In this document: piece after piece, positions 20,662-61,177 of the stretch
How positions within the stretch are numbered: the stretch's first letter is position 1
Layout: the number at the start of each line of letters is the position of its first letter
Source of the DNA: Gammaproteobacteria bacterium
GTDB lineage: Bacteria > Pseudomonadota > Gammaproteobacteria > Ga0077536
Direction: 5' to 3'
NCBI GenBank assembly: GCA_963662545.2
Contig: CAXXLL010000002.1
Coordinates: 2,527,135 to 2,591,134, forward strand
Length of the DNA: 64,000 nucleotides
The notes under the pieces: model-generated
Told to the model about the DNA's origin: nothing
What the model saw: only the letters and a program-made list of their open reading frames with translations
Database searches by the model: none
Made by a program: the position numbers and the translations under genes

Positions 20662-20819
20662 GAAGTTGTGTCAATAGCTGAAAAATGCTCTACGCTGCGA
20701 AAATGTATCCCACTAGAATTTCTATGAGCGGTCGATTAGGGGGTCGCGCCGTTTAAGGTAGGTGAATCGGGCTACGCTTCTTCCACTTAGAAATTCGAGA
20801 TAACTTTTCACACAGCCCC
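20662..20819 (-). mobile_element. Diverged IS1182-type MITE, inverted homolog of 54931-55089
   Basis: Colinear with the reverse complement of 54931-55089 (e.g. taaggtagg.gaatcggg); flanks gatc/ggtc. Confidence 0.75.
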
Positions 20820-20873
20820 GGTCCATAGTGGACGGTCGCGGAAGGAATTCCGCCCTACGAGGAAGGTTTACCG

Positions 20874-21705: not shown

Positions 21706-21792
21706 ACGACCGCTTACGAGGGCATTGCAGACGTAATCTGGAGCTGTGCTGTACTGCCGCGATTAGCCGGCTAAAGACCCATTGCAGTCCTT
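21706..21792 (+). repeat. Composite repeat R1 (units A+B, unoccupied)
   Basis: acgaccgcttacgagggcattgcagacgt-31nt-gccggctaaagacccattgcagtcct. Confidence 0.85.
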
Positions 21793-24432: not shown

Positions 24433-24748
24433 GGTCGATATCCTTTGCGTGAAGCTCGCCCAGGAAGCCTACCAGGTGCTGCAGGCTGCGACCGAGCCTG
24501 TCGATGCTCCATGCCATCACGACGTCGATTTCGCGCCGTGTAGCGGCTTTGAGAAGCGCATCGAACGCGGGGCGCTTGTCTCGGCCCTTGGCGCCTGAGA
24601 CCCCTTCGTCAACGAACTCGGCAACGACTTCCCAGCCGCAACGCTCGGCAACCTGGCGCAGTTCGCGGAGTTGGTTCTCGGTGGTCTGATCGTCGGTGGA
24701 AACGCGCGCGTAGATGACGGCGCGCTTGATAGACTTGTTGGTAGCCAT
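24433..24748 (-). pseudogene. Serine recombinase (resolvase) truncated by IS
   Basis: IYARVSTDDQ, DEGVSG, DRLGRS; cut at the IS end at 24432. Confidence 0.85.
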
Positions 24749-24847
24749 GGTCAACTCCTATACAGTTGATGGTGGTTAGGGCCGTGTGGGTGTTGACGCA
24801 CTCACGCGGCCTGTCTTTTCAAAGTAGCCCGTCTTGACCCGTTGTTC

Positions 24848-25340
24848 AAGAAACGAGCGTTTCCCCCGACGAGCGGCCCCTAGCGCAGCGCCATACCGCC
24901 ATGACCTGGGCGCAACGCCTCAAGCGGGTCTTCAACATCGACATCACCACCTGCCAGGCCTGTGACGGCACCCTGAAGGTCATTGCCTGCATCGAAGACC
25001 CCCACGTCATCCGCAAGATCCTCGACCACCTGGACAGGCTCGCACCAACAACCGACCCCAACTCATTACCCGAACCCCGAGCGCCCCCCCCAGCCGGGCC
25101 TGTTCGACACGCTCTGACCGTCCCGCTCTTCCCCGCACTGATGACCTTCCCAGACCCGGCAGAGTTTCGTTCGTCCGGGACCAGGAAAATGACCCACACC
25201 CCTCGCTCAACCACCACAACGTTCGCCAAATACAGCCCACATCCGGCAAGTTTTGCTCCACCTGCCCAGACCAACCAATACCAGTCAGCCCTTGGCAGGC
25301 TTGTCCTTCATCGGAATGTGGCTTTATGCTTCTATATGCG
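24848..25340 (+). mobile_element. ISCR/IS91-family remnant: transposase C-terminus plus oriIS-like end
   Basis: AMTWAQRLKRVFNIDITTCQACDGTLKVIACIEDP..I.KIL.HL..PRAPP; gtggctttatgcttctatatgc near 25318-25339 resembles ISCR oriIS ends. Confidence 0.75.
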
Positions 25341-25387
25341 CAGTACGCCATGTTCTGTCACTGCGCTAGAAGCCGCTAATCTCGCGG

Positions 25388-27427
25388 TCAGATCTCGCGC
25401 CCCAGCTGCTCTCCCTCGTAAATAATCGCAGCCAGCTTGCGTGGCGCGACCACATCTCCGACTCGGTGGACTTCTGGGAAGCTACCCCGAATTTCCTGAA
25501 ACAGGGCATCGTTCGGAGTCCGCAGCATAGAGAGAATAACGCTATCGACGGCGGCGATCGTGCGGGCCTGCCCGCCCCAGATGTTGTAGGTTTCGACCGT
25601 GTTCCCATCTACTTTCTCAATGTGATGCTGGGCCGTGAGCCGCACCCCGGCTTGAATGAGCTTGGGGTAGAGCACAGGCATGTCTCCAGTGCTGAAAGTG
25701 TCTTCACCGACAAACATGTGCGGAGAAATAACCTCGACCTCCGCGCCGCCTTGTGTGGCGAGTATCTCGGCGAGCCCGAGGGGCAGGTAGCTTGCGGTCT
25801 CGTCAACAATAATCACCCGCTTACCGAGTGCGGTGGGGTCTTCGAGGGCGCGGCGGGTGGCGGTCTCGACGTCCAGAACATGCTCCTGATCGGATCCAGG
25901 AATGCTCGCACGCTCGGACCGATACGGACTGAAACCACCGCCTGAGTCATACGTCGAGCCAGTGGCGCAGACAATGGCGTCGGCCTTTTCGTTTTCGAGC
26001 AAGCCTTTAGTCGCCGCCGTGCCGCACCGCACGATGACTCCGGCGGCTCCCATCTCATGCGTCAGATTATCAATCGCGCTTTGCCACTCGGCGCGAGTGG
26101 GTAGCCGTTTATGCAGATTGAGATGTCCCCCGAGTTCGTCTTCTTTTTCGATCAGGGTCACGTGATGGCCGCGCCTGGCTGCTATGGCCGCCGTCTTCAT
26201 GCCCGCAGGTCCGCCACCGACGATGACGATCTTTTTTGCTTCGTTTTCAGCGACCGATTTGAGCGTTCCGTCTCCCCATTGGCGCTCGCGTCCAACCGTG
26301 GGATTCATCAGACAGATCACTTCGCGATTGTTGAAAAGACGGTTCACACACTCGTTTGCCCCGACACATCTGATGATTTCCTTTTCTCGGCCCTCACGTG
26401 CTTTTGTCACGAGAAACGGGTCAGCCATTTGCGCGCGTGTCATCGCTACCATGTCGGCGGCCCCGTCGCTAAGGATCTGCTCTGCCATCGCGAGGTCGAG
26501 AATGCGGCCCACAATAAAAACCTTCGCGCGGTCGCCCACGATTTCTTTGGCGCGCTTGCCAAAAGGAACCAGAACGCCTTCTGGCCCACTACCCATGGGC
26601 GGGGCAACTCGATGTGGGGTTTGATAACCACCGCCTGAAATGTTGAAGAAATCGAATAAGCCGCTTGCAGCGAGGATCTCGGTCTGCTCCTCAGCTTGTT
26701 CCTGTGTGATCCCGGCCTCGCCTATGAATTCATCAAACGACAAGCGAATACCCAGCGTGAAGTCGGTGCCCACTTGCTGCCTGATACGCTCGCCAATCTC
26801 GAGCGCGAGCTGGCAGCGCTTTTGAACCGACCCGCCGTACCGGTCCGTTCGTTTATTGTAGGCCGGACTGAGAAACTGCCCGATCAGATAGCCGTGCGCA
26901 CCATGGATCTCGATTCCATCGAGGCCGGCGACTTTCACGTTCAGCGCCGACTCGCCGAAACCGGTGACCAGGTCATCGATGTGCGCTTGCTCCATCTGCA
27001 GAGGGATCTCTCTTCTCAGCACCGAGGGGATAGGCGACGCCGCCCACAACGGATGCCATTCGTCGATGAGCATCGTCCCTTGATCGTGAACGCCGGCAGC
27101 ATAGAGTTGGACAAATTGTTTCGCACCGTATGCGTGCACCGCCTCTGCCAGCTTCGCGTACTGGGGAATGGCGCGTTTTTCCCAAGCCGTACACCCCATG
27201 TGGAACGATCCCTTGCTAAGGCGATGGCCGGCTTGCTGCTCAGTGATGAGCAGTGCGACACCCCCCTTGGCTCGTTCGCGGTAGTAGGCGATATGACGAT
27301 CACTGAGAATGTGATCTTCTGCATACAGAACCGTTTGCGCGGTCATCATGATTCGGTGCTTGACCGTGGTATGACCGATGGTGAGAGGGCTCCACACGTG
27401 AGGCAATTCGGATAATGAGTCGCTCAT
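25388..27427 (-). CDS. NADH:flavin oxidoreductase (OYE / TMADH-like with FAD domain)
   Basis: YYRERAKGG, EIHGAHGYLIGQFLSP..NKRTDRYGG, IVGGGPAG. Confidence 0.92.
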   Translation of the reverse strand: MSDSLSELPHVWSPLTIGHTTVKHRIMMTAQTVLYAEDHILSDRHIAYYRERAKGGVALLITEQQAGHRLSKGSFHMGCTAWEKRAIPQYAKLAEAVHAYGAKQFVQLYAAGVHDQGTMLIDEWHPLWAASPIPSVLRREIPLQMEQAHIDDLVTGFGESALNVKVAGLDGIEIHGAHGYLIGQFLSPAYNKRTDRYGGSVQKRCQLALEIGERIRQQVGTDFTLGIRLSFDEFIGEAGITQEQAEEQTEILAASGLFDFFNISGGGYQTPHRVAPPMGSGPEGVLVPFGKRAKEIVGDRAKVFIVGRILDLAMAEQILSDGAADMVAMTRAQMADPFLVTKAREGREKEIIRCVGANECVNRLFNNREVICLMNPTVGRERQWGDGTLKSVAENEAKKIVIVGGGPAGMKTAAIAARRGHHVTLIEKEDELGGHLNLHKRLPTRAEWQSAIDNLTHEMGAAGVIVRCGTAATKGLLENEKADAIVCATGSTYDSGGGFSPYRSERASIPGSDQEHVLDVETATRRALEDPTALGKRVIIVDETASYLPLGLAEILATQGGAEVEVISPHMFVGEDTFSTGDMPVLYPKLIQAGVRLTAQHHIEKVDGNTVETYNIWGGQARTIAAVDSVILSMLRTPNDALFQEIRGSFPEVHRVGDVVAPRKLAAIIYEGEQLGREI

Positions 27428-32602: not shown

Positions 32603-32674
32603 ATGTCTCCTGCGCTCGATAGCGGACGTTCGCGCGAAAGGCTCGTGAGTCCGTTATGTGCCCGAAGCGGTCAT
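32603..32674 (+). repeat. Two-unit variant of the palindromic repeat
   Basis: atgtctcctgcgctcgatagcggacgt ... gtccgttatgtgcccgaagcggtcat. Confidence 0.6.
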
Positions 32675-32781
32675 CACTACAAACTCCGCAACGGTTAGTT
32701 CCTGCTCGAACAGTCGGGAAGAAACGGGTGGATCTGACCTGCCCCTACGAACTGGTCCAGTTTTCTGATGGCAGCTCACTC

Positions 32782-34035: not shown

Positions 34036-34250
34036 TCATCTTATGGCCGCACTTGTATTGCTCATAATCCGCTCTACTTCATGTCGAAACCCTTTTTCGA
34101 ACTCATTGCCATAATTGTCCCAAAACCATTTGCCACCGTTAGTAGATAGTGTACGTCTGATGGCAGGTATTTGAGCTTCCCAAGTGTCGTTCGCCAACTC
34201 GGCGTAAGCGCTCTGAGCGTAGACGTTTGCCTGTGACATTAAGGCTCGGC
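34036..34250 (-). pseudogene. C-terminal fragment of the family-X membrane-anchored protein
   Basis: LANDTWEAQ...STNGGKWFWD...FEKGFRHEVE aligns by eye with the C-terminus of 46840-47328. Confidence 0.6.
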
Positions 34251-34322
34251 ATGTTCTCTTGTGGTGATCCCGGTTCGAAGGTTGCGGCGGTGTGATACCC
34301 CCTTGCACAGACAGCACGTCCT

Positions 34323-34568
34323 GCTCACGCCGGCACAGTTCAGCGATCGAATGCTCTCCTCGCAACCTTTCTATCACGATGCGGATCTTTTCTTCCGCTG
34401 AGTATTGTTTCCGTGTTGCCCGTCGGATGCTCTTTACATGCTGTTCTGCGGTCTGTTGAGACCTCGATTTATTGTTCATCTTCGCTCTCGGTGGTGAGCT
34501 TCGATGAACCAGCATCTCTCCGTTAACTAAATCCCGCAACTGGTCTCATGAATGCTGACGTCGGACAA
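34323..34568 (-). pseudogene. IS3-family orfA fragment with IS end
   Basis: IRRATRKQYSAEEKIRIV..LRGEHSIAELCRRE. Confidence 0.8.
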
Positions 34569-34578
34569 TTAGCACCGC

Positions 34579-34884
34579 TCACAATAAAGAATCAGGCCGC
34601 AGCTGTATCTTGGTCGGCGCCTCCATTCGCTCTTGCGAGAACCCTGTGGTGTCGTTAATTTTCAGTTTACAGGTCTTCTCTTTCGCGCACCGCGCCCGCT
34701 GCACCCGCATTACCCTCGCCAGACTCCGCAGAAGCATTCGTGTGCCCCCCTTACAGGCGTTTTGTGCCGAAGTTTCCTTCCCGCTTTGGCTGGTCGGGCC
34801 GGTCGATTTCGCCCACGGCCTCCAATTCTGAATCAGTTGCGCCTGCCTTGCCCGCCGCTCCGGTGTCCAACCATTCGCTGCCAT
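34579..34884 (-). CDS. Small phage/island protein (STGP motif, HGGxSTG-like)
   Basis: WTPERRARQA.LI..WRPW.KSTGP...GK. Confidence 0.6.
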   Translation of the reverse strand: MAANGWTPERRARQAQLIQNWRPWAKSTGPTSQSGKETSAQNACKGGTRMLLRSLARVMRVQRARCAKEKTCKLKINDTTGFSQERMEAPTKIQLRPDSLL

Positions 34885-35437
34885 GTTTCTGCTCCAATAG
34901 TTCGTTTGGCGGAATTTTGTTTTCCCGTGCGCAAGGATCGCCGCTTTTTTTAATATCCGCATTGTTTATCTGCTGGTGACCGTGCGCAATATTCGCTTGA
35001 CCGACGTAGCCCGCCATCGGCGGATTCTTGATGGCCGATAGCGCCTCCCACGTTGCCCGACATTGAGACTGAGCACGCAGCGCAAGTTTCATGTACGTCT
35101 CTGCCGCCCCCATATACTCACCCATATTGAGAATTGCGCGCTGGACGAGGGTGTGAAATAACGCGTCCAGCGTATGCGCCTGTGTCGCAAGCATCGCTTC
35201 ACCACGACCCAGGTCGCCCTCGTTTGCTGACTTCGTCTGCTCCGACAGCGCTTCCATTAGTCCTGTAAGGTCTTGCTCGCCGAATTGTTGCGTGAGCGCC
35301 TTAACCGTAACCGCAGCCTGCACGGTGGGACGGAGTACTGTACGAGCTTTTGCGACGCCCTCATCGTCATCGGGCTTAGTACTTGCAGTAATCTGGTTCG
35401 CGTCACGCTTTTTGGTAGATTTTCGTTTACTCGCCAT
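34751..35437 (-). CDS. Conserved hypothetical protein of integrative elements
   Basis: 228 aa; ALRAQSQCRATWEAL..IKNP, QANIAHGHQQ; directly downstream of the primase. Confidence 0.65.
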   Translation of the reverse strand: MASKRKSTKKRDANQITASTKPDDDEGVAKARTVLRPTVQAAVTVKALTQQFGEQDLTGLMEALSEQTKSANEGDLGRGEAMLATQAHTLDALFHTLVQRAILNMGEYMGAAETYMKLALRAQSQCRATWEALSAIKNPPMAGYVGQANIAHGHQQINNADIKKSGDPCARENKIPPNELLEQKHGSEWLDTGAAGKAGATDSELEAVGEIDRPDQPKREGNFGTKRL

Positions 35438-35475
35438 TTGGCTAATCTCAATTAATTAGGAAGATGAGTGACTTT

Positions 35476-37523
35476 CTATTCACCGCGGCTGGCACGAGCA
35501 TATGCGTTGCGGTCACTGACAGTTTTCGCACACCCGTCGACAGAAACCGACAAAACCGGCGAAACCGATTCCACGACTTCTATTCGCCAATGCTCTGATG
35601 ACCCATTGCCACTTCCGCGGATGATCTTTTTGCCATCAACGATCCGGCCCGCGTGACGACGTATCCACCAACCCACTTTTCTACGATTAATTTCCCCGCG
35701 TTCGCTGGCAATGTCGTGCAGTACTTCTCGAAGCTCGACATTTACATCGCAATACTCGGTAGGATGTTTGACGGCTTCTCGGACCATTGCGGGCGTTTTT
35801 CTAAAAACGCTGAACCACGCCTCTAAAAGACGCGATAAGATTTCTCGGTCGGGGTCGTCGGCGATAGCCTCGAACACGGACGCGGTGGGGTCTTCGCATC
35901 CTAGCCACATCATCGGCTGCCGGCAAAAATCTGACCAGACGCCGTAGCTGGCTAAGGGCTTACATGGTGACTTGGGTCTACCGGCGACGATCCAAGCGCG
36001 AATGATTGTCAGCGCGGCGGCAACGTAACGATCACGGTCGCGGAGAACTTCCTGGATCAGATCCGGGCGCTCAAATTCTCGCGCTGCGGGCACTTCACAT
36101 TGCGGAGAAAGATTAATTGCGATGCAACGCCGCGTCATATCTTGAACCGGTCCGACGTTGTTTCCGCTGGATAGAAAAAGCGCCCGAGTACCGACTGCGG
36201 CCGTTTTTGAAACACCAAGAATCCGGCCACTAATATACTCCGATGTCAGCGCCGTACAGAGGCTCTTGTGTGCAACCAAATCACTCGTGAGGTTATCGAA
36301 CTCGATAACCGCAGGCGCGCGCAGTAACTCGGCAAGTAAAAGTTTGCGGCACTCTTCGTCGTCGCGGGGAAACGTTGTCGGCGTGCCGCGCTTCGGGGTC
36401 GCGAACGCTGTAATCAGCTCACAAAGATAAGACTTTCCAGAGCCAACCATATGCGCTCGTGCGTGGAACATGGGCGCTGCGGGTAAGCTCGGACGAATTG
36501 CCGCGGTCAAGATGGCGGTCAACGCGGCGGCGCGATCCACGTCGCCGGCAAAACTGAACTCGGCCAGCAGGTCGCTCAACGTTGTTAAAGCGGTCTTTGC
36601 TTCAGCGTACGTTGGCCGCTCCGGAATAGTAAAATTCCGAGCATCAAATACGCCGAACATTCTGGTTGTCGTATCGTACCCTGCTGATCCCATTAGCGAG
36701 CCATCTTCACGGAGATAAGGCTGCCGGGCGATCCCGTGAAGCACTGCCAAGTGCGCATAGCTGATAGAGTCAAACAGGACTGAAGCGTGCCGCGCTGGCG
36801 GGTCCGTGCGCGACCATGTTTGCGACCGCGCATCGTATCGTTCCCACGTTGCTGCGCCAGCCAGCGCACGCACCAAAGCGGGCTGGGTAATTTCCTGGAC
36901 CCTTGTGTCGCGTGTGCCTGGGTCGGTGGTCACGGTAACGATCAATCCGCCGCGTTGATAGTATCGACCGGCTTCCGCAAGCTGATGCTCGGCAGCATCG
37001 ACTATACGGTGGATTTCGCCTGGGATGATCCGGATCGTTGGCTTCATCCGCGCCGCCCCGACTTCTACGCTAAGAAGCTCCAATAGATCGCGAATGTGAC
37101 GTTCGGCACAGTGACCGTGGAAACATTTGAACCCGCCGATCGGCCAGCTGTCGTCAGGTTCGAAATATGCAGCACCGGTATCAACCTGGTCAGTATGCTC
37201 CCGGACCCACGGGCAGGTAATAGCGTGCTTGCCGTCGCCAAGCGGAGCCTTATAAAGATCCCGCTCACGCAATGAGGCAGTGACGGCGTTGTCGTCGGGA
37301 CGCGGAATACACACGGCGTCATCGAAGTCGGGACGGGCTACCGGAAGTTGTGCCCCCCGCTTTCGCGCATGTCGGGGCTCAACCATATCGAGTTGAAGAC
37401 CGTTGACAATTTCATCGACCGAGTACCGATTTTCGGGAGCCCAAGTATCGAGAAAGCATTCGAAAGGCGGGTTATGTTTTCCGTTGACCGCTACAGGTAG
37501 GCGCGCCAATCGCGCGCGAGGAC
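35476..37523 (-). pseudogene. Primase/helicase-like replication protein, 5'-truncated by IS21
   Basis: RLP...NGK, CPW..EH...CFHGHC Zn-finger-like motif, Walker A GSGKS; frame runs into the IS21 end. Confidence 0.7.
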
Positions 37524-42244: not shown

Positions 42245-42390
42245 ACGACCGATTCTGTACGACAGCCGAAGTCGGCGTTCCGCATCGCTCTTGCAGCAGT
42301 TTGACGACCGCTTCTGGGGAAATCGCAGACGTTATTTAGAGCAATGCTGCACTGCGGTGGTTAGGCCGCTGACGACCCATAACGGCCATC
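42245..42390 (+). repeat. Composite repeat R2 (units 0+A+B, unoccupied)
   Basis: ...cagccgaagt-33nt-gaccgcttctggggaaatcgcagacgt-31nt-ggccgctgacgacccataacggccat. Confidence 0.88.
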
Positions 42391-43822: not shown

Positions 43823-44182
43823 TCATGAGGCTAGGTATTCAGTGCAGGGGAAGGCTTCCATGAGCGCATTGAGCACCAAGCTGCCGCCGCTCAGATGTAA
43901 CTTTGCTGGATGCGCTTCAAGGTACTTCACGACGACGAGCCTGAGCTGATCTTGCGTTACCTCGTCTGGCGAACAAAATTTCTGAGGTAAGTCGCCCCAT
44001 TCCACCCAGACGTTATGGGTATCATAAGCCGACGCTATGTAGCCGTGGCAGTATATGAATTTCATGCCTCGGGGAGTCTCAGCGCAGTCCGATAACATTT
44101 CGTTGCCGGTAATGAAAGACTCCACTGCTGCCCCCGCATTCCCAGAAACACACAGCAAAGCAATAAGCAAAAACTTCTTCAC
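43823..44182 (-). CDS. Rap1a/Tai-family immunity-like secreted protein
   Basis: Signal peptide, TGNEM..DC, C.GYI, FC.P, VVVKYLE.HP..LH, AFPC. Confidence 0.78.
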   Translation of the reverse strand: MKKFLLIALLCVSGNAGAAVESFITGNEMLSDCAETPRGMKFIYCHGYIASAYDTHNVWVEWGDLPQKFCSPDEVTQDQLRLVVVKYLEAHPAKLHLSGGSLVLNALMEAFPCTEYLAS

Positions 44183-46511: not shown

Positions 46512-46761
46512 ATGTCTGCTATGGAGGGTATTGCAGACGTAACTTTGAGCAGTGTTGCGGTAGCGCGATCCGGCGGCTATCGACCCAGACTGTGTGAAAA
46601 CTATTTTCATTTTTCAAAAGTGGGGGAACTACCCTCGAAATTGGATCTAATTGAAATGCCGATCCCTATTCGAGGGGCATAACAACTATGCTGGTGGGGA
46701 ATATTTTTATTTCGTCGTCGTATTTTTGAGTTTTCACACACTCTGGACCCATTCCGGACAT
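46512..46761 (+). repeat. Composite repeat R3 (unit B interrupted by MITE)
   Basis: atgtctgctatggagggtattgcagacgt-31nt-ggcggctatcGACC[MITE]GACCcattccggacat. Confidence 0.88.
46586..46745. mobile_element. 160-bp IS1182-type MITE, copy 1
   Basis: cagactgtgtgaaaact / agttttcacacactctg, GACC duplication. Confidence 0.92.
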
Positions 46762-47328: not shown

Positions 47329-47427
47329 TGGTAAATGGTTCCGCGACGCCTAACTATTATTGGACGGCCTAAAAGCCGAAATTAAAAACGACTTTTACGC
47401 CTGAATAATAAATTCGATTGCAAATTA

Positions 47428-47559
47428 TCAAGTATTTTGGCCGTAGGCGGAAGTCAGCGCCAGCAATGATATCCAGGCATTTTGGATGACTGCTTCCGAG
47501 AGTATTGCAGACGTAATCCTTGCCAGTGCTGCGCTGCAGCGATTAGGCAGCTAACGACC
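47428..47559 (+). repeat. Composite repeat R4 (right arm resumes at 49245-49260)
   Basis: ttggccgtaggcggaagt-33nt-gactgcttccgagagtattgcagacgt-31nt-ggcagctaacGACC. Confidence 0.88.
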
Positions 47560-49244
47560 CAGAGTGTGTGAAAACTCGGAATGAAGAGGAATCACGTCGA
47601 GAACTCCTCGTCAGACGCAACGCGGCGCGGTTACGACGGCCGCGCTCGCGGTCCAATGCGATCGGTTAGTTAATGGAACATTCCTTAGAACGGCCCCAGA
47701 AGCCGGCAGTGAAGCCGTGGATCAGGGAGTTTTCGAGGCCACAGAGGGTCTCATGCCGTCATCGCTTCGATGAGCGTAGCGACACCCAGTAGATTCATCA
47801 CGCGTTTCATGTTGTAAGCGAGCACGTGCAGACTCATTTCCGTACCAACGTGTTTCAGCGTGCGCATCTGGAAGTGGGTCGAACCCATCCAGGATTTGAT
47901 CGTGCCAAATGGATGCTCGACCGTCTCTCGGCGGACACGCATAGGGTCAGGTTCACGATCCAATCGCGCCTGCACCGCTTCAACAACCGCTTCATGTTCC
48001 CAACGGCTGACGCGCCGGTATCGACCCGTTGTGCATTTAGATTTGATCGGGCAGCGGGGACACGCCGAACTCCAGTAGCGCCGGATCTGCTTGCCTTTCT
48101 CCACTCGGGTGAACCGGTAAATCAGTCGCTCACCGGCCGGGCATTCATACGCATCCTCTTCGGGTTGGTAAATGAAGTCGCGCTTGCCAAACAAGCCCTT
48201 CGCCTGGTTACCCGAGGTCTGCGGTTTCGGCAGATAGGTCGTGATGCCGGCTTTAGCGCACGCCAAGATCTCTTCGCCACTGAAGTACCCGCGATCCGCA
48301 ACGACGGTCAACTCCTTCTTATCCAGCGCCTCTTTGGCTTTCTCCGACATGTTCGACAGTTGCGCCCGGTCATGACCTACGTTCGTCACTTCATGTGCCA
48401 CAATCAGATGACTCTTCGTGTCGACCGCCGTCTGCACGTTGTACCCCACCATGCCGCTGCCACGGCCGCTCGTCGCCATCGAGCGCGCGTCCGGGTCCGT
48501 CAGTGAGACCTGATGGTCCGGCGTCTCCTCGAGCCGTACCTCGAGCTTTTTTAGGCGGCCTATCTCTTCCTTCAGTACCTCGATCTTGTCCTTCAAACGC
48601 TGCGACTTGTCACCTGACACCGCACGCTCCTGGCGGTCGGCACTTGCAATTTCCGCCAGGTACCGCTCAACGCTCTCGTCAATCTGCTGCAACCGACGTT
48701 TCAGCTTCGCCTTCGTGAAGTTCCGGTCACGGTTGTTTACCGCTTTGAACTTGCTGCCATCTATCGCCACGAAGGCTTCCGAAAACAGCTGCAGCTTACG
48801 GCACAGCATCACGAACTCCCGGCATACCAGACGAATGGCGTCACCGTTATCTTTGCGGAAATCGGCAATGGTCTTGAAATCAGGCGCCAGACGACCCGTC
48901 AGCCACATCAGTTCCACGTTCCGCTGCGCCTCCCGTTCCAGGCGACGGCTCGATTGAACCCGGTTCAGGTAACCGTAGATATAGAGCTTCAGCATCGTCG
49001 CCGGGTGATACCCCGGTCGACCCGTCTCATGCGCATCGGTTCTGAAACTCAGACCTGACAGATCCAACTCATCGACGAACACATCGATGACCCGCACCGC
49101 ACTCTCCTCAGCGACATAATCGTCCAGACACTCGGGAAACAGCGTTGTTTGGCGGCGGTCCGCGCCTTCAATGAACCCGCTCATCAACGACTCCCCAGGA
49201 CCGAAAGAGTGATCTTATCTGATGCAGAGTTTTCACACACTCTG
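47560..49244 (-). mobile_element. IS1182-family element copy 1 (1685 bp)
   Basis: Inverted repeats cagagtgtgtgaaaactc / gagttttcacacactctg, GACC duplication. Confidence 0.95.
47751..49187 (-). CDS. IS1182 transposase
   Basis: GRPGYHP, SSRRLER, PDFKTIADFR, IDGSK, TDPDAR, ADRGY, VEHPFGTIK. Confidence 0.95.
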   Translation of the reverse strand: MMSGFIEGADRRQTTLFPECLDDYVAEESAVRVIDVFVDELDLSGLSFRTDAHETGRPGYHPATMLKLYIYGYLNRVQSSRRLEREAQRNVELMWLTGRLAPDFKTIADFRKDNGDAIRLVCREFVMLCRKLQLFSEAFVAIDGSKFKAVNNRDRNFTKAKLKRRLQQIDESVERYLAEIASADRQERAVSGDKSQRLKDKIEVLKEEIGRLKKLEVRLEETPDHQVSLTDPDARSMATSGRGSGMVGYNVQTAVDTKSHLIVAHEVTNVGHDRAQLSNMSEKAKEALDKKELTVVADRGYFSGEEILACAKAGITTYLPKPQTSGNQAKGLFGKRDFIYQPEEDAYECPAGERLIYRFTRVEKGKQIRRYWSSACPRCPIKSKCTTGRYRRVSRWEHEAVVEAVQARLDREPDPMRVRRETVEHPFGTIKSWMGSTHFQMRTLKHVGTEMSLHVLAYNMKRVMNLLGVATLIEAMTA

Positions 49245-49348
49245 GACCCTTTGCGGTCATCCTCGACCCAAACCGGAAATGTCAGTGGTGTACCTTTACA
49301 TACGTTAGTTCGCTTCCCCGGATTCGGCTCCACACGCTGGCTACAAAG

Positions 49349-49867
49349 TTAAGATATCTTCTGAGTGCCTGTCCCAATCGTCGTAGTTTGGGATAGCTCG
49401 ACTCTTCCGACCGACTCGACACAGTCGAGAAACGACTTTGTGTAAATAGGCAGCGTCGATTCATCTGCCCACCACTCGGCAGATGCAGGGAATTGCACGA
49501 GGCCACTAAACGAAGTCAGGCGGGCCTCCCAAACTTCTGGGTCGAGCAAATTCGCCTTATATTGAAAATATTGTGCTTCCACCTGCTGTGCGAAAGCACG
49601 AAACGCGAAAGTAATGGCAGTCCTTTCCTTGTCACTGAAATTATCCAACTTTTCATTTGGATCGAATATACGAACTATCGTGTCTCTGTCCTGATGTTCG
49701 GAAATGATCAAGTTGTATCGTGACCATTCCATCTGGGACTTGGTGCCCGCATCAGCGCGCATCGTGCGAGTGTTCGAGCGAACTTCGTACGCAAGGTAGA
49801 GCACCGATAATATTACGCCGAGAGCACCCAAACTCTCGGCCGTAGCACTAATCGCCTCGAAATTCAT
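49349..49867 (-). CDS. Family-X protein (N-terminal TM anchor)
   Basis: AESLGALGVILSVLYLAYEVRSNT...LLDPEVW...EWW; GTTAGAT directly before the ATG. Confidence 0.8.
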   Translation of the reverse strand: MNFEAISATAESLGALGVILSVLYLAYEVRSNTRTMRADAGTKSQMEWSRYNLIISEHQDRDTIVRIFDPNEKLDNFSDKERTAITFAFRAFAQQVEAQYFQYKANLLDPEVWEARLTSFSGLVQFPASAEWWADESTLPIYTKSFLDCVESVGRVELSQTTTIGTGTQKIS

Positions 49868-49908
49868 ATCTAACACCTCCCGTCTGTAAACGAACACGTA
49901 GGATAGCG

Positions 49909-50158
49909 ACGACCGCTATGGAGAGTACTGCAGACGTGATCTGGAACAGTGCTGCACCGCAGCGAGGGGGCCGCTAACGACCCAGACTGTGTGAAAACTA
50001 TTTTCATTTTTCAAAAGTGGGGGAACTACCCTCGAAATTGGATCTAATTGAAATGCCGATCCCTATTCGAGGGGCATAACAACTATGCTGGTGGGGAATA
50101 TTTTTATTTCGTCGTCGTATTTTTGAGTTTTCACACAGTCTGGACCCATAGCGGTCAT
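49909..50158 (+). repeat. Composite repeat R5 (unit B interrupted by MITE)
   Basis: acgaccgctatggagagtactgcagacgt-31nt-ggccgctaacGACC[MITE]GACCcatagcggtcat. Confidence 0.88.
49983..50142. mobile_element. 160-bp IS1182-type MITE, copy 2
   Basis: Interior matches copy 1; GACC duplication. Confidence 0.92.
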
Positions 50159-51271: not shown

Positions 51272-51345
51272 ACGACCGCTTACGAGCACATTGCAGACGT
51301 AATTCTTAGCAATGCTGCGCTGAGGCGACAGGGCAGCTAACGACC
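51272..51345 (+). repeat. Composite repeat R6 (right arm resumes at 53031-53046)
   Basis: acgaccgcttacgagcacattgcagacgt-31nt-ggcagctaacGACC. Confidence 0.88.
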
Positions 51346-53030
51346 CAGAGTGTGTGAAAACTCGGAATGAAGAGGAATCACGTCGAGAACTCCTCGTCAG
51401 ACGCAACGCGGCGCGGTTACGACGGCCGCGCTCGCGGTCCAATGCGATCGGTTAGTTAATGGAACATTCCTTAGAACGGCCCCAGAAGCCGGCAGTGAAG
51501 CCGTGGATCAGGGAGTTTTCGAGGCCACAGAGGGTCTCATGCCGTCATCGCTTCGATGAGCGTAGCGACACCCAGTAGATTCATCACGCGTTTCATGTTG
51601 TAAGCGAGCACGTGCAGACTCATTTCCGTACCAACGTGTTTCAGCGTGCGCATCTGGAAGTGGGTCGAACCCATCCAGGATTTGATCGTGCCAAATGGAT
51701 GCTCGACCGTCTCTCGGCGGACACGCATAGGGTCAGGTTCACGATCCAATCGCGCCTGCACCGCTTCAACAACCGCTTCATGTTCCCAACGGCTGACGCG
51801 CCGGTATCGACCCGTTGTGCATTTAGATTTGATCGGGCAGCGGGGACACGCCGAACTCCAGTAGCGCCGGATCTGCTTGCCTTTCTCCACTCGGGTGAAC
51901 CGGTAAATCAGTCGCTCACCGGCCGGGCATTCATACGCATCCTCTTCGGGTTGGTAAATGAAGTCGCGCTTGCCAAACAAGCCCTTCGCCTGGTTACCCG
52001 AGGTCTGCGGTTTCGGCAGATAGGTCGTGATGCCGGCTTTAGCGCACGCCAAGATCTCTTCGCCACTGAAGTACCCGCGATCCGCAACGACGGTCAACTC
52101 CTTCTTATCCAGCGCCTCTTTGGCTTTCTCCGACATGTTCGACAGTTGCGCCCGGTCATGACCTACGTTCGTCACTTCATGTGCCACAATCAGATGACTC
52201 TTCGTGTCGACCGCCGTCTGCACGTTGTACCCCACCATGCCGCTGCCACGGCCGCTCGTCGCCATCGAGCGCGCGTCCGGGTCCGTCAGTGAGACCTGAT
52301 GGTCCGGCGTCTCCTCGAGCCGTACCTCGAGCTTTTTTAGGCGGCCTATCTCTTCCTTCAGTACCTCGATCTTGTCCTTCAAACGCTGCGACTTGTCACC
52401 TGACACCGCACGCTCCTGGCGGTCGGCACTTGCAATTTCCGCCAGGTACCGCTCAACGCTCTCGTCAATCTGCTGCAACCGACGTTTCAGCTTCGCCTTC
52501 GTGAAGTTCCGGTCACGGTTGTTTACCGCTTTGAACTTGCTGCCATCTATCGCCACGAAGGCTTCCGAAAACAGCTGCAGCTTACGGCACAGCATCACGA
52601 ACTCCCGGCATACCAGACGAATGGCGTCACCGTTATCTTTGCGGAAATCGGCAATGGTCTTGAAATCAGGCGCCAGACGACCCGTCAGCCACATCAGTTC
52701 CACGTTCCGCTGCGCCTCCCGTTCCAGGCGACGGCTCGATTGAACCCGGTTCAGGTAACCGTAGATATAGAGCTTCAGCATCGTCGCCGGGTGATACCCC
52801 GGTCGACCCGTCTCATGCGCATCGGTTCTGAAACTCAGACCTGACAGATCCAACTCATCGACGAACACATCGATGACCCGCACCGCACTCTCCTCAGCGA
52901 CATAATCGTCCAGACACTCGGGAAACAGCGTTGTTTGGCGGCGGTCCGCGCCTTCAATGAACCCGCTCATCAACGACTCCCCAGGACCGAAAGAGTGATC
53001 TTATCTGATGCAGAGTTTTCACACACTCTG
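51346..53030 (-). mobile_element. IS1182-family element copy 2
   Basis: Same ends, length and protein as copy 1; GACC duplication. Confidence 0.95.
51537..52973 (-). CDS. IS1182 transposase
   Basis: Same 478-aa translation as copy 1. Confidence 0.95.
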   Translation of the reverse strand: MMSGFIEGADRRQTTLFPECLDDYVAEESAVRVIDVFVDELDLSGLSFRTDAHETGRPGYHPATMLKLYIYGYLNRVQSSRRLEREAQRNVELMWLTGRLAPDFKTIADFRKDNGDAIRLVCREFVMLCRKLQLFSEAFVAIDGSKFKAVNNRDRNFTKAKLKRRLQQIDESVERYLAEIASADRQERAVSGDKSQRLKDKIEVLKEEIGRLKKLEVRLEETPDHQVSLTDPDARSMATSGRGSGMVGYNVQTAVDTKSHLIVAHEVTNVGHDRAQLSNMSEKAKEALDKKELTVVADRGYFSGEEILACAKAGITTYLPKPQTSGNQAKGLFGKRDFIYQPEEDAYECPAGERLIYRFTRVEKGKQIRRYWSSACPRCPIKSKCTTGRYRRVSRWEHEAVVEAVQARLDREPDPMRVRRETVEHPFGTIKSWMGSTHFQMRTLKHVGTEMSLHVLAYNMKRVMNLLGVATLIEAMTA

Positions 53031-53083
53031 GACCCTAAGCAGACCTTGTAGGTTCTTGTACTCTGACCTCAAACCATTAGCAG

Positions 53084-54913: not shown

Positions 54914-55222
54914 AAGGTCTGTTATTGGCCGAGGCTGTGTCAAAAGTATTTTCGAATTTTGAAAGTGGGAGAAGTTTAACCCGATTCGCCTACCTTAGGC
55001 GGTGCGTTCCCTTAATCAATCGTGCATAACAACCTAAGTGGGGAAAATTTTCGCGGCGGGCTCCATTTTTCGACTTTTGACACAGCCTCGGCCGGAAGCC
55101 GAAGTCACCTCCAGCGATGTTTTCTAAACAAGCTGAATGGCCGCTTACGAGCGCATTGCAGACCTGACCCCAAGCAGTGCTGCACTGCCGCGAGGAGGCG
55201 GCTGACGACCCATTTCAGCCAC
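54914..55222 (+). repeat. Composite repeat R7 (unit 0 interrupted by MITE; A+B intact)
   Basis: ggtctgttattGGCC[MITE]GGCCggaagccgaagt-33nt-ggccgcttacgagcgcattgcagacct-31nt-ggcggctgacgacccatttcagcc. Confidence 0.88.
54931..55089. mobile_element. 159-bp IS1182-type MITE, second subfamily
   Basis: Inverted repeats gaggctgtgtcaaaagt / acttttgacacagcctc, GGCC duplication. Confidence 0.9.
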
Positions 55223-56368: not shown

Positions 56369-57721
56369 CTGAAGGCTCCCCACGAATTGAAGGAGAATTC
56401 ACATAAAAAATAGCCATTTAGAAAAATAAATAGCGAACAATAGGGAACATGCATGACGTTCGGTGATCAATAACGGTGACGAAACCAAATTGGTCACGGG
56501 AGAACGCCATGCATGCACTGAGATTGTTGCACAAAATAATGGGGCAAGCCTGTCCGCAGATACACGCGGTAAGGCTAACGGCATTGATGGCGAGCGTTGA
56601 GGCCCTTTTGGTCGGCCGTCAGATGAGCTTAGCCGGTCTTGGTCGCGCCTTGCTGTCGGGGGCGCGAGTCAAACACAACATCAAGCGAGTCGACCGGTTA
56701 ATTGGCAACCGTCATCTGTGGGGAGAACGAACGGAACTCTATGGGGCGATGGCGGGGCTGGTGCTTGGACAAGGACCACGTCCGGTAATTATTCTGGACT
56801 GGTCGGATATGCGCGAAGATCGGTCATGGCAGTTGTTGCGTGCGGCGGTTCCGGTGGGAGGCCGTTCACTGACGCTCTACGAAGAAGTACATCCCTTGTC
56901 GGCGTATGACAACCGGGGTGTCAGGAAACGGTTTCTGGAGCGTCTTCGAGAGATCTTACCACCGGGGTGTCGCCCGCTCTTAGTCACGGATGCCGGCTTC
57001 CGGACGACTTGGTTTAGACAGGTCGAAGCAATGGGTTGGGACTGGGTCGGTCGGGTCCGCGGGCGCACCCATTTCCGGCTGGACAACCAGGCAAGCTGGC
57101 AACCGTGCCGGACGTTGCATGCGATGGCCAACTCACGTGTGCGGCATATCGGGACAGTCGAACTAACGGTATCGAATCCATTGGCCTGTGACCTGTACCT
57201 GGTGAAGAAGAAAAAGCGTGGCCGTCAACAACTGACCTGCCGCGGCACGCGTGCCCGTGGTGGCCGCAGCCTTAGCTGTGAACGACGCCAGCGCGAACCC
57301 TGGATATTGGTCACCTCACTGGGGTCGCGCGCGGCCCAGCAGGTGATGCGGTGTTATCAGTTGCGCATGCAGATTGAGGAGAGTTTCCGGGATATGAAAA
57401 ATGCCCGTTTGGGACTGCACTTCCGCAGCGCGCGTTCCAACAGCGCCGAGCGGCTCTCGATCCTCGTCCTGATTGGTACGTTGGCAACATTAGTCGCTTG
57501 GTTAGTCGGCCAAGCGATGCAGCGTTTCGGGCTGCAGCGCCATTACCAGGCCAATACAACCCGGCATCGGCCGGTACTCTCCACCGTCTTTCTGGGCTTG
57601 CAAAGTTTTTGCAGGCAACCCGTAAAGCTTATGCTGGCAGACATCAAGCAATCGATTATCGCCTTACACCAAAATACCGCAAACCCGTTGCGTTATGCGT
57701 AAGTTCGTGGGGATCCTTCAG
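56369..57721 (+). mobile_element. IS4-family (IS10-like) element
   Basis: Inverted repeats ctgaaggctccccacgaa / ttcgtggggatccttcag; 9-bp duplication aatctgtcc. Confidence 0.93.
56509..57702 (+). CDS. IS4-family transposase
   Basis: ILDWS, TDAGFR, YQLRMQIEESFRDMK (YREK). Confidence 0.93.
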   Translation: MHALRLLHKIMGQACPQIHAVRLTALMASVEALLVGRQMSLAGLGRALLSGARVKHNIKRVDRLIGNRHLWGERTELYGAMAGLVLGQGPRPVIILDWSDMREDRSWQLLRAAVPVGGRSLTLYEEVHPLSAYDNRGVRKRFLERLREILPPGCRPLLVTDAGFRTTWFRQVEAMGWDWVGRVRGRTHFRLDNQASWQPCRTLHAMANSRVRHIGTVELTVSNPLACDLYLVKKKKRGRQQLTCRGTRARGGRSLSCERRQREPWILVTSLGSRAAQQVMRCYQLRMQIEESFRDMKNARLGLHFRSARSNSAERLSILVLIGTLATLVAWLVGQAMQRFGLQRHYQANTTRHRPVLSTVFLGLQSFCRQPVKLMLADIKQSIIALHQNTANPLRYA

Positions 57722-57725
57722 AATC

Positions 57726-57856
57726 TGTCCCCTTTGGCAGAGAGCCGAAGTTGCCGCCGCCGCTCACTGTTACGTAAGTCGAGTGACCGCTTACAAGCGC
57801 ATTGCAGACGTAATCTAGGGCGGTGCTGCACTGCCGCGATTAGGCCGCTGACGACC
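57726..57856 (+). repeat. Composite repeat R8 (right arm resumes at 59542-59557)
   Basis: ttggcagagagccgaagt-33nt-gaccgcttacaagcgcattgcagacgt-31nt-ggccgctgacGACC. Confidence 0.88.
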
Positions 57857-59541
57857 CAGAGTGTGTGAAAACTCGGAATGAAGAGGAATCACGTCGAGAA
57901 CTCCTCGTCAGACGCAACGCGGCGCGGTTACGACGGCCGCGCTCGCGGTCCAATGCGATCGGTTAGTTAATGGAACATTCCTTAGAACGGCCCCAGAAGC
58001 CGGCAGTGAAGCCGTGGATCAGGGAGTTTTCGAGGCCACAGAGGGTCTCATGCCGTCATCGCTTCGATGAGCGTAGCGACACCCAGTAGATTCATCACGC
58101 GTTTCATGTTGTAAGCGAGCACGTGCAGACTCATTTCCGTACCAACGTGTTTCAGCGTGCGCATCTGGAAGTGGGTCGAACCCATCCAGGATTTGATCGT
58201 GCCAAATGGATGCTCGACCGTCTCTCGGCGGACACGCATAGGGTCAGGTTCACGATCCAATCGCGCCTGCACCGCTTCAACAACCGCTTCATGTTCCCAA
58301 CGGCTGACGCGCCGGTATCGACCCGTTGTGCATTTAGATTTGATCGGGCAGCGGGGACACGCCGAACTCCAGTAGCGCCGGATCTGCTTGCCTTTCTCCA
58401 CTCGGGTGAACCGGTAAATCAGTCGCTCACCGGCCGGGCATTCATACGCATCCTCTTCGGGTTGGTAAATGAAGTCGCGCTTGCCAAACAAGCCCTTCGC
58501 CTGGTTACCCGAGGTCTGCGGTTTCGGCAGATAGGTCGTGATGCCGGCTTTAGCGCACGCCAAGATCTCTTCGCCACTGAAGTACCCGCGATCCGCAACG
58601 ACGGTCAACTCCTTCTTATCCAGCGCCTCTTTGGCTTTCTCCGACATGTTCGACAGTTGCGCCCGGTCATGACCTACGTTCGTCACTTCATGTGCCACAA
58701 TCAGATGACTCTTCGTGTCGACCGCCGTCTGCACGTTGTACCCCACCATGCCGCTGCCACGGCCGCTCGTCGCCATCGAGCGCGCGTCCGGGTCCGTCAG
58801 TGAGACCTGATGGTCCGGCGTCTCCTCGAGCCGTACCTCGAGCTTTTTTAGGCGGCCTATCTCTTCCTTCAGTACCTCGATCTTGTCCTTCAAACGCTGC
58901 GACTTGTCACCTGACACCGCACGCTCCTGGCGGTCGGCACTTGCAATTTCCGCCAGGTACCGCTCAACGCTCTCGTCAATCTGCTGCAACCGACGTTTCA
59001 GCTTCGCCTTCGTGAAGTTCCGGTCACGGTTGTTTACCGCTTTGAACTTGCTGCCATCTATCGCCACGAAGGCTTCCGAAAACAGCTGCAGCTTACGGCA
59101 CAGCATCACGAACTCCCGGCATACCAGACGAATGGCGTCACCGTTATCTTTGCGGAAATCGGCAATGGTCTTGAAATCAGGCGCCAGACGACCCGTCAGC
59201 CACATCAGTTCCACGTTCCGCTGCGCCTCCCGTTCCAGGCGACGGCTCGATTGAACCCGGTTCAGGTAACCGTAGATATAGAGCTTCAGCATCGTCGCCG
59301 GGTGATACCCCGGTCGACCCGTCTCATGCGCATCGGTTCTGAAACTCAGACCTGACAGATCCAACTCATCGACGAACACATCGATGACCCGCACCGCACT
59401 CTCCTCAGCGACATAATCGTCCAGACACTCGGGAAACAGCGTTGTTTGGCGGCGGTCCGCGCCTTCAATGAACCCGCTCATCAACGACTCCCCAGGACCG
59501 AAAGAGTGATCTTATCTGATGCAGAGTTTTCACACACTCTG
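57857..59541 (-). mobile_element. IS1182-family element copy 3
   Basis: Same ends, length and protein; GACC duplication. Confidence 0.95.
58048..59484 (-). CDS. IS1182 transposase
   Basis: Same 478-aa translation. Confidence 0.95.
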   Translation of the reverse strand: MMSGFIEGADRRQTTLFPECLDDYVAEESAVRVIDVFVDELDLSGLSFRTDAHETGRPGYHPATMLKLYIYGYLNRVQSSRRLEREAQRNVELMWLTGRLAPDFKTIADFRKDNGDAIRLVCREFVMLCRKLQLFSEAFVAIDGSKFKAVNNRDRNFTKAKLKRRLQQIDESVERYLAEIASADRQERAVSGDKSQRLKDKIEVLKEEIGRLKKLEVRLEETPDHQVSLTDPDARSMATSGRGSGMVGYNVQTAVDTKSHLIVAHEVTNVGHDRAQLSNMSEKAKEALDKKELTVVADRGYFSGEEILACAKAGITTYLPKPQTSGNQAKGLFGKRDFIYQPEEDAYECPAGERLIYRFTRVEKGKQIRRYWSSACPRCPIKSKCTTGRYRRVSRWEHEAVVEAVQARLDREPDPMRVRRETVEHPFGTIKSWMGSTHFQMRTLKHVGTEMSLHVLAYNMKRVMNLLGVATLIEAMTA

Positions 59542-59782
59542 GACCCTTATGCGACATTCGTCGATTTCGACAACTACCCTAATAGAAAGCAGCGCGGCCT
59601 TCGGAAAGGCGGTAAGCAAAGCGGGCAACACCGTTGTCGCGGCGCCCATAACTGGGCGCAGACTGGGAAGCCCGGAGGTCATCGTTTTCGTTCAAATTTC
59701 GGTGACCGAGGGATTAGAATTCGAATCCTGACGAGAATATCGTCCCTCCATCACCCTTTTTTCCGAAGGAACCGACTAAATC

Positions 59783-60868: not shown

Positions 60869-61177
60869 ACGTTTGTTGTTGGCCGAGAACCGTCCTGCTC
60901 CGCTAACGTTCCGCCCAATGCTACTCGACGACCGCTTTCGGGCGCATAGAAGACGTAACGTTTAGCAATGCTGCATTGCCGCGAGGCGGCGGCTCACGAC
61001 CCAGAGTGTGTGAAAACTATTTTCATTTTTCAAAAGTGGGGGAACTACCCTCGAAATTGGATCTAATTGAAATGCCGATCCCTATTCGAGGGGCATAACA
61101 ACTATGCTGGTGGGGAATATTTTTATTTCGTCGTCGTATTTTTGAGTTTTCACACAGTCTGGACCCTTTGCGGACAT
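60869..61177 (+). repeat. Composite repeat R9 (unit B interrupted by MITE)
   Basis: ttggccgagaaccgtcct-33nt-gaccgctttcgggcgcatagaagacgt-31nt-ggcggctcacGACC[MITE]GACCctttgcggacat. Confidence 0.88.
61002..61161. mobile_element. 160-bp IS1182-type MITE, copy 3
   Basis: Interior matches copies 1 and 2; GACC duplication. Confidence 0.92.

Follow-up and report, generated by a model that had tools for sequence, protein, structure and literature searches.

A recurrent intergenic module with fixed internal spacing in a gammaproteobacterial accessory-gene region: a possible double-stranded recombination site

Introduction

A non-coding module of 84-145 nt occurs nine times (R1-R9), always on the plus strand, in the 64-kb stretch of DNA analysed here (the window), and its subsites are held at fixed distances from one another while one of the spacers between them drifts in sequence. 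The fixed spacing with a free spacer, the direct, dyad-like units and the lack of a coding or folding signal point to a site that is read as double-stranded DNA by several protein subunits. Taken together, the evidence suggests that the module serves a DNA-rearranging protein as a docking site, one whose kind fits no family described so far. Recombination or transposition is favoured over gene regulation because the modules form head-to-tail arrays among accessory genes, because the intervals between them are compact and mixed in composition, and because one cassette is shared with another genome and has its breakpoints within modules. The explanation considered best, a multi-subsite recombination site used in double-stranded form by a recombinase for which the window has no gene, is put forward tentatively and falls a little short of an even chance; binding, enzyme class and crossover are presumed.

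Anatomy and coordinates of the module

A repeat finder recovered the module as a family of 74-nt repeats starting at positions 21708, 42306, 46514, 47488, 49911, 51274, 55139, 57785 and 60930, which correspond to R1-R9. These 74-nt cores align without gaps at 72-86% identity to the reference copy. An IUPAC pattern made from the 23 positions that are invariant in R1-R9 matched nine of nine copies, all on the plus strand, against 0 expected from 100 shuffles, and allowing three mismatches yielded no extra copy in the window. The core is composed of two direct repeats, unit A (27 nt) and unit B (26 nt), which are offset by 58 bp, and of a 15-nt palindrome P (7-1-7; GCAGTGC-T-GCACTGC) that lies midway between them. 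The units carry 6-bp arms (GNCNGC ... GCNGNC) flanking 12-13 nt. Within each copy, A and B agree at 13-18 of 26 positions at offset +58, which outscores all other offsets in 11 of 13 copies; in four of the 13, the best other offset is -59 and corresponds to an optional third unit. This unit 0 is found 59-61 nt upstream of A and shares one ungapped register in R2, R4, R7, R8 and R9. Since the left edge of the module lies 61 nt before A and conservation ends sharply with ...CAT, 84 nt from the beginning of A, the full module spans about 145 nt, in agreement with the coordinates of the initial annotation.

R2 is a complete and uninterrupted module (42245-42389; this and all other module parts are on the plus strand). 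Its unit 0 extends from the left edge to a GAAGTC motif (42245-42273) and is identical to its own A at 17 of 26 positions at offset -59. It is followed by the unit 0-A spacer of constant length and variable sequence (42274-42305), by unit A with its arms around 13 nt (42306-42332), by P with one mismatch (42341-42355) and by unit B, a direct repeat of A that is 1 nt shorter and after whose ...CAT conservation stops (42364-42389). R7 (55078-55222) is also complete and uninterrupted, with a perfect P at 55174-55188, and R1 (21708-21791) consists of an uninterrupted A-P-B without an in-register unit 0. The other six copies are each divided into a left part and a displaced right half of B. For R3, the left part comprises A, P and the left half of B up to GACC (46514-46585), with the right half displaced by a MITE (46750-46761). 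For R4, unit 0 to the left half of B (47427-47559) is separated by an IS from the right half (49249-49260). The corresponding parts are 49911-49982 and 50147-50158 in R5, where unit A is 14 nt from the start codon of a minus-strand ORF (49349-49897), 51274-51345 and 53035-53046 in R6, 57724-57856 (unit 0 to the left half of B) and 59546-59557 in R8, and 60869-61001 and 61166-61177 in R9. By manual count, the initial annotation, which concerned 42245-42390, had described an A-B spacer of 31 nt in all nine copies, a palindrome that is perfect in R7, a unit 0-A spacer of 33 nt in R2, R4, R7, R8 and R9 and a recurrence of units every 58-59 bp. Each of these readings was borne out, with the A-B length fixed by the gapless core and the unit 0-A spacer constant in the five copies at 32 or 33 nt, according to where the unit edge is placed. 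In R1 and in one copy from a related contig (L003a), a reading of the sequences by eye weakly indicates that unit 0 may be present about 11 nt closer to A.

Elements inserted into unit B

Six of the nine copies (R3, R4, R5, R6, R8 and R9) are split at the identical base, the centre of unit B. A 4-bp duplication, GACC, accompanies each insert, and the orientation of the insert relative to the module is uniform (6/6). The insert in R4, R6 and R8 is a 1685-bp IS with 18-bp terminal inverted repeats and a 478-aa transposase that belongs to the IS1182 family (NCBIfam score of 466.5 bits against a cut-off of 270; also recognised by Pfam). Its three copies are located on the minus strand at 47560-49244, 51346-53030 and 57857-59541 and are identical across 1685 bp. 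R3, R5 and R9 contain a 160-bp MITE on the plus strand (46586-46745, 49983-50142 and 61002-61161, respectively), whose copies differ at 1-2 positions and which has only the terminal repeats in common with the IS. The inserts were cut out by coordinates before the module was analysed, and the reconstructed empty site of R8 is confirmed by its uninterrupted counterpart on contig L001, in which the left part and the right half of B are joined. IS1272, a member of the IS1182 family, is reported to target inverted repeats (PMC5678879), and the insertions at the centre of a dyad-like unit resemble the inverted-repeat targets of IS1272 and IS1182-family elements. According to the same study, IS1272 replaces its target repeat and generates no duplication (PMC5678879), whereas GACC is duplicated and the target retained here; the comparison concerns the passenger IS only and not the module. 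As the preferred landing site of an active IS1182-family IS and of a MITE, the module makes both target choice and its own function testable.

Relatives in other genomes

An exact-pattern scan of 185,579 species, each represented by one genome, required all 23 fixed positions and matched four contigs, all of them from MAGs. These are labelled Pseudomonadota (L001), Gammaproteobacteria (L002), Chloroflexota (L003) and Candidatus Poribacteria (L004). The contigs of L003 and L004 are merely 3.9 and 5.7 kb long, and L002 and L003 share a 695-nt stretch at 81% identity; the phylum labels of L003 and L004 may therefore be binning artefacts. Diverged relatives were missed because an exact match was demanded, and the scan caught four of the seven copies later found in its own loci. 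A profile built from 13 copies with nhmmer was then used to search the window and the four loci, which added three copies and gave 16 significant copies on five contigs (E <= 2e-17), the next best match having E = 0.31. A possible degenerate inverted pair of units is seen at 32604-32676 (nhmmer E of 0.31 and 4.4). Copies within the window are only 65-86% identical, so that they are old and give no sign of recent activity; the mean over all 16 cores is 76%. Searches with R7 by blastn returned just two 30-nt chance matches among plasmids and none among phages.

Fixed length and drifting sequence

Mean pairwise identity among the five full copies of the window is 51% in unit 0, 35% in the unit 0-A spacer (26 nt), 77% in A, 67% in the A-B spacer and 89% in the left half of B. 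Free sequence is found in the unit 0-A spacer alone. The variability that the initial annotation attributed to the spacers accordingly applies to the unit 0-A spacer and not to the A-B spacer. For the nine A-B cores of the window, parsimony on a neighbour-joining tree counts at least 93 substitutions and 0 indels. The probability of observing no indel is 0.01 to 1e-6 at assumed indel:substitution ratios of 0.05-0.15, a range for which a hand count in orthologous non-coding flanks (2 indels against about 22 substitutions) gives a rough local value of about 0.09. Over all 16 cores, at least 148 substitutions and 3 indels are counted, and the probability of three or fewer is 0.06 to 5e-7. The A-B length is constant in 14 of 16 copies, the exceptions being L001b (+2) and L003a (-1), and 10 of the 11 copies with a recognisable unit 0 have their left edge 61 nt before A (L002 has +4). 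Indels in the module are rare yet permitted. Frequent indels in the spacers and a lack of conserved arms, which the earlier proposal of selection on spacing had named as evidence against itself, are thus not what wider sampling yields, and the alignment of 16 copies has 25 invariant columns, concentrated in the unit arms and the palindrome. Even when read conservatively, the module represents a clear natural case in which spacing, rather than sequence, is under selection.

Genomic context and array layout

The first 18 kb of the window encode housekeeping functions, including squalene-hopene cyclase, uvrC, pgsA and three tRNAs, with a GC content of 59.7% and no module. Eight copies are located at 42-61 kb of the window and three at 9.9-12.5 kb of L001. 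In the 98 kb examined with the profile search, no copy occurs at 1-20.8 kb of the window, 1-9.9 kb of L001 or 0.35-10.3 kb of L002, which together make up about 40 kb of backbone. The intervals between modules measure 0.6-4 kb and contain one to five unrelated genes on either strand. These genes encode an isoaspartyl methyltransferase, a Rap1a-type immunity protein, an acetamidase, an isochorismatase, a nitroreductase, a MOSC protein, a SnoaL-like protein, a cupin and an alpha/beta hydrolase, in addition to several ORFs without an assigned family, and their GC content ranges from 46.6 to 61.1%, compared to 59.7% for the backbone. On L001, three copies inside 2.5 kb flank a hydrolase gene and a pilin-like gene, and the 9.9 kb upstream, which include selA and selB, are free of modules. 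On L003, two copies flank one gene. Luciferase-like genes beside R1 and the L004 copy were considered as a second cassette shared between genomes and rejected at 39% identity.

Every contig with more than one copy displays a single orientation (9/9 in the window, 3/3 in L001 and 2/2 in L003). By the authors' own arithmetic, this uniformity has a chance of 1 in 2048 if orientations are random. The position of the modules relative to neighbouring genes is inconsistent in orientation, and both divergent promoter regions and gene ends are occupied. Because the GC skew is negative across most of the window, the one-orientation rule could be linked to replication.

Across the 64-kb window and the 34 kb that the related loci comprise, searches with Pfam and NCBIfam models detected no recombinase able to act on the module. 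The recombination genes that were found in the window and the four loci are IS transposases, a truncated serine-recombinase N-terminus (24416-24754) and an ISCR fragment. The serine-recombinase remnant is separated from R1 by 2.6 kb and from R2 by 17.5 kb, and the stretch upstream of its start codon contains no unit with a score of >=12 bits. A candidate partner, the 677-aa ORF at 35476-37509, has no match in Pfam, NCBIfam, PADLOC or PDB; a Walker-A-like motif can be discerned in it by eye.

A hydrolase cassette shared with another genome

The alpha/beta hydrolase gene of the R8-R9 interval recurs in L001, where 299 of 301 residues are identical (99% at the amino acid level). At the DNA level, the cassette is 95% identical across 1.47 kb between the window and L001, and the outer flanks are unrelated on both sides. 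Identity is at background left of R8, reaches 50% in unit 0 and its spacer, 78-88% in A-P-B and 95-100% in the hydrolase gene and its flanks, and then falls to 85% in unit 0 of R9, about 68% in A-P-B of R9 and background past the centre of B. R8 and its counterpart L001a are reciprocal best matches among the 16 cores (91% against a family mean of 76%), and R9 and its L001 counterpart, at 75% identity, are not best matches. No relation is seen between the 33-nt spacer of R8 and its equivalent in L001a, though A-P-B are 91% identical. Repeat similarity therefore seems to track the cassette and not the genome, with the hydrolase gene apparently travelling together with its left-hand module, for which the evidence comes from this one shared cassette. 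Judged from the identity profile, the rearrangement breakpoints are located inside modules. Since the left and right breakpoints disagree, a single fixed crossover would need an extra conversion event. Mosaic similarity among the copies suggests exchange between repeats.

A possible mechanism

In the proposed mechanism, the module of about 145 bp would act as double-stranded DNA and dock a sequence-specific recombinase or transposase-like enzyme for which the window has no gene. Units A and B, the palindrome and the optional unit 0 would each bind protein, and the need for the bound proteins to come together in a single complex would fix the spacing. Such an arrangement would parallel a resolvase res site with its three subsites, or a recombination core with accessory arms. 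Head-to-tail modules would divide the accessory-gene island into cassettes of one to few genes, and recombination between modules may excise, insert and shuffle these cassettes, in a manner reminiscent of integrons, though through a different kind of site.

Alternative explanations

Another way to read the module is as an extragenic mosaic of the BIME/REP type, composed of palindromic units at fixed spacing that are tolerated or used by the host and are bound by nucleoid proteins or a REP-type transposase, with insertion sequences and rearrangements drawn to the same place by coincidence. In enterobacteria and pseudomonads, such elements consist of short, GC-rich, imperfect palindromes that are able to form hairpins and alternate in orientation; they are spread over the intergenic regions of the genome and are accompanied by a REP-type (Y1) transposase. 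The module shares with BIME/REP elements a strictly intergenic, non-coding and modular character, in which unit 0 is present or absent, dyad-like units in addition to a palindrome, and fixed inter-unit motifs; the mosaic similarity that suggests inter-repeat exchange fits as well. An IS or MITE occupies one position in six of nine copies, and REP sequences are documented targets of IS (PMC1525189). This reading is nevertheless rather doubtful: the orientation of the modules is uniform on each multi-copy contig and the copies, in the 98 kb examined, appear confined to arrays instead of being dispersed, the units are direct and do not alternate, the module far exceeds the length of a REP, hairpin covariation is absent from the palindrome and the units alike, no Y1-type transposase was detected in the Pfam scans of the window and loci, and divergent promoter regions are occupied as well as gene ends.

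A less probable possibility is that the modules are fused or solitary transposon ends with several transposase-binding sites, i.e. a non-autonomous mini-element that inserted repeatedly in one orientation. Transposon ends with several binding sites for the transposase are known from Mu, Tn7, Tn552 and Tn402. Both the entropy profile and the alignment show the module to end abruptly on the right, at ...GCGGNCAT, in almost every copy. By eye, R2, L001a, L002, L003b and L004 have A[TCG]G[TA]CCG at the left edge, the reverse complement of what stands at the right edge, and these five copies may thus have a 7-nt terminal inverted repeat. The possible inverted pair of degenerate units at 32604-32676 would agree with this explanation, as would unit 0, which scores as an inverted unit in L001 (16.4) and L004 (13.6), but these scores are inside shuffle noise (the maxima of 20 shuffles range from 7.8 to 19.3). 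MITEs of the DDE type combine terminal inverted repeats with a target-site duplication. No such duplication was seen in the six copies inspected by eye, and the identity of 65-86% between copies contrasts with 99-100% for the neighbouring active MITE and IS. A matching transposase was not found, and the ends of the IS21 element in the window, which were considered as a source of the units, carry a different repeat.

Structured RNAs typically conserve length as well. That the module specifies such a non-coding RNA, or that it folds as single-stranded DNA and in this form serves, for instance, a recombinase or nickase acting on one strand, is improbable on the tests applied. A coding function was rejected, given that the best frame has stops in three of 13 copies and that per-phase entropy is flat (0.84, 0.88 and 0.81), without a three-base period. 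At the gathering score, Rfam models identified only three tRNAs in the whole window and nothing on the module; permissive searches (E up to 5-10) over R2, R7 and three L003/L004 copies also returned nothing on it. RNAalifold predicts -6.4 kcal/mol for the 16 copies, with none of 12 predicted pairs compensatory, a covariation test that on 16 sequences has little power against folds built wholly of conserved bases. When the palindrome is treated as a hairpin, two compensatory cells are observed, but 84.4% of cells are paired against 84.1% in shuffles, and 261 of 500 shuffles are as high. The full-length consensus folds as single-stranded DNA at -2.6 and -2.1 kcal/mol on the two strands, which derive from a 6-bp palindrome only, and single-copy folds, with z-scores of -2.5 to +1.3, are no better than shuffles (R1, R2 and R7 on both strands; nine full-length copies). 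On the plus strand, the palindrome could form a conserved stem with the right arm of A, a stem that includes several one-sided changes compatible with G-U pairing. In opposition to a transcribed RNA, no sigma-70 promoter or terminator was predicted within any copy between 42 and 61.4 kb, the orientation relative to neighbouring genes is inconsistent, and the variable spacers, considered as guides, match just chance-level 11-12-mers elsewhere. The initial annotation had left the choice between phased protein sites and a folded ssDNA or RNA and had suggested covariation analysis and folding of both strands; protein-site phasing survives, mostly by elimination, and the folded alternative is left without support by both analyses.

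Ordinary integron attC sites in an integrase-less array (CALIN) would fit the small cassettes of unrelated genes in one orientation, their variable GC content and the length of the module, which is in or near the attC range. The attC consensus is defined by an inverse core, RYYYAAC, at the 5' side and a core, GTTRRRY, at the 3' side, which are complementary to each other. Neither motif of this pair is present at the module ends on either strand, as judged by eye from the alignments. Complementary core pairs separated by 45-150 nt and stably folded on the bottom strand were sought across the entire window by regular expression and folding, a crude test that yielded 0 candidates on both strands. 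No end-to-end hairpin of the attC kind was found in the module folds. In addition, A and B are direct and not inverted, and no IntI or other tyrosine recombinase is encoded in the window or the four loci, even if arrays without an integrase exist and this one may continue beyond position 64000. The CALIN reading is thus highly unlikely.

A decayed mini-CRISPR-like array, with a unit of about 26 nt, a spacer of about 32 nt and a period of 58-59 that are in the CRISPR range and a first spacer of variable sequence and constant length, is scarcely credible and was rejected, as the units within a copy are only 50-69% identical, the second spacer is 67% conserved and holds a palindrome, the repeated entity is the entire three-unit block, and neither a CRISPR-DR Rfam match on the module nor cas genes in the window or loci were detected. 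A supposed likeness of the P-to-B segment to the type I-F CRISPR repeat was likewise dropped, as Rfam models gave no support.

Returning to the double-stranded recombination site, a broader and unlikely, though consequential, proposal is that the modules define a cassette system other than the integron. Uncultured marine or host-associated bacteria would then capture, excise and exchange accessory-gene cassettes through a double-stranded site with three subsites, using a recombinase family new to such arrays, and the geometry of the synapse would set the spacer length. To our knowledge, no well-understood system other than the integron stockpiles cassettes of single genes. If the proposal is true, a second and mechanistically different cassette system would change models of accessory-gene flow in uncultured bacteria and could possibly provide a new tool for site-specific recombination.

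Comparison with known systems

Integron arrays resemble the present arrangement in several respects. They also place sites head to tail in one orientation between compact cassettes of unrelated accessory genes with mixed GC content, the site here likewise apparently moves with its cassette between genomes, and both are targets of site-specific IS. In contrast to integron attC sites, the module is without the R''/R' core motifs and the bottom-strand hairpin, and its subsites are direct and not inverted. Furthermore, unlike in integron arrays, the genes are found about equally on both strands, cassettes may contain up to five genes and no IntI was seen. Four literal motifs from the module and the IS end were not found in a full-text literature search, and a text search for cassette arrays not based on attC gave nothing relevant by title or abstract; going by these motif and text searches, the module appears to be undescribed in print.

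The res sites of Tn3-family serine resolvases and sites of the cer/psi type with accessory arms contain several dyad-like, protein-binding subsites within about 120-150 bp, and the spacing between these subsites matters; a res site has three of them, each dyad-symmetric and bound by a dimer, at constant distances within about 120 bp. They occur once per replicon or transposon, beside the recombinase gene, and directly repeated sites of the res type lead to deletion of the intervening DNA. The module, with three units of about 26 bp, 6-bp inverted arms, a spacing of 58-59 bp and an additional palindrome, resembles them in having several dyad-like, putatively protein-binding subsites and keeps the spacing rather than the sequence of the spacer. 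In contrast to res sites, nine modules are present in 40 kb without an adjacent intact recombinase, and, to the extent that a plasmid-wide blastn search can show, the subsite sequences are unrelated. Because tested defining features of both systems are absent, the module is assigned neither to integrons nor to res sites. By analogy, its layout is closest to that of an integron array, and its internal design is closest to that of a resolvase res site or of a recombination core with accessory sites.

Mobile elements in and around the modules

The exact centre of unit B, the right-hand unit of the non-coding repeat module, is the insertion point of an IS1182-family IS or its MITE in six of the nine modules. 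These insertions share a single orientation and are accompanied by a GACC duplication. The IS is present as three identical copies of 1685 bp each (47560-49244, 51346-53030 and 57857-59541), the MITE as copies of 160 bp (46586-46745, 49983-50142 and 61002-61161), and 18-bp terminal repeats are the sole sequence common to the two. Plasmid-borne ISPa7-type transposases share about 66% identity with the transposase of the IS, and the element is apparently active.

At 20803-20835 (repeat family D12) lies what may be the decayed remainder of a MITE right end and, after it, a right half of unit B, with 70-78% identity to the intact MITE/unit B junctions; the array may formerly have started upstream of R1, the first module copy. 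Two adjoining unit-like sequences, 45 nt apart, were also observed on the minus strand at 32604-32676, in the orientation opposite to all nine modules. With nhmmer E values of 0.31 and 4.4 and a PWM score of 16.0, which lies inside shuffle noise, this pair may represent a degenerate partner in inverted orientation, or it may be due to chance.

Other transposable elements are found near the modules and elsewhere in the window. An IS4-family element (56369-57721), encoding a 408-aa transposase (NCBIfam, 337 bits), carries 29-nt imperfect terminal inverted repeats and is flanked by a 9-bp target duplication, AATCTGTCC; unit 0 of module R8 lies a few bases downstream of this insertion. A second MITE-like element of about 162 nt, unrelated to the 160-bp MITE of unit B, occurs in two copies (4904-5065 and 9146-9308, families D10 and D14) that are 84-87% alike, have 17-nt terminal inverted repeats (GGAACCTCTGAATAAGT...), and are both located in backbone intergenic regions. 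Family D11 is a tandem duplication of a 66-nt unit (1439-1570, 98% identity). Within the interval between modules R2 and R3, a Rap1a-family type VI immunity gene was identified (43823-44182, Pfam E 2.9e-20), and no effector gene was recognised beside it.

Among contigs with further module copies, one binned as Gammaproteobacteria (L002, 3804-4490) and one binned as Chloroflexota (L003, 3171-3857) have a 695-nt stretch in common. Since this stretch is 81% identical across two differently binned contigs, it points to either mis-binning or transfer between module hosts.

Mobile-element remains and three consecutive ORFs

The zone 18074-41922 is rich in mobile-element remains. It includes an IS630-type transposase, a pair of IS481-like copies that are 73-77% alike, an IS21 whose terminal motifs are repeated, an IS3-type pair, an ISCR-type transposase represented by its final 65 residues (24901-25425) and a serine-recombinase N-terminus that is cut off at 24416, beside an IS. 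Three consecutive minus-strand ORFs of 167, 228 and 677 aa (34036-37509) had no match in Pfam or NCBIfam; one of them gave a weak, sub-threshold PADLOC match (E 0.002), and the 677-aa protein had no match in the PDB. Inspected by eye, this protein contains a Walker-A-like motif, GSGKS, together with clusters of Cys/His residues near its N-terminus, features that recall the primase-helicases of integrative elements.
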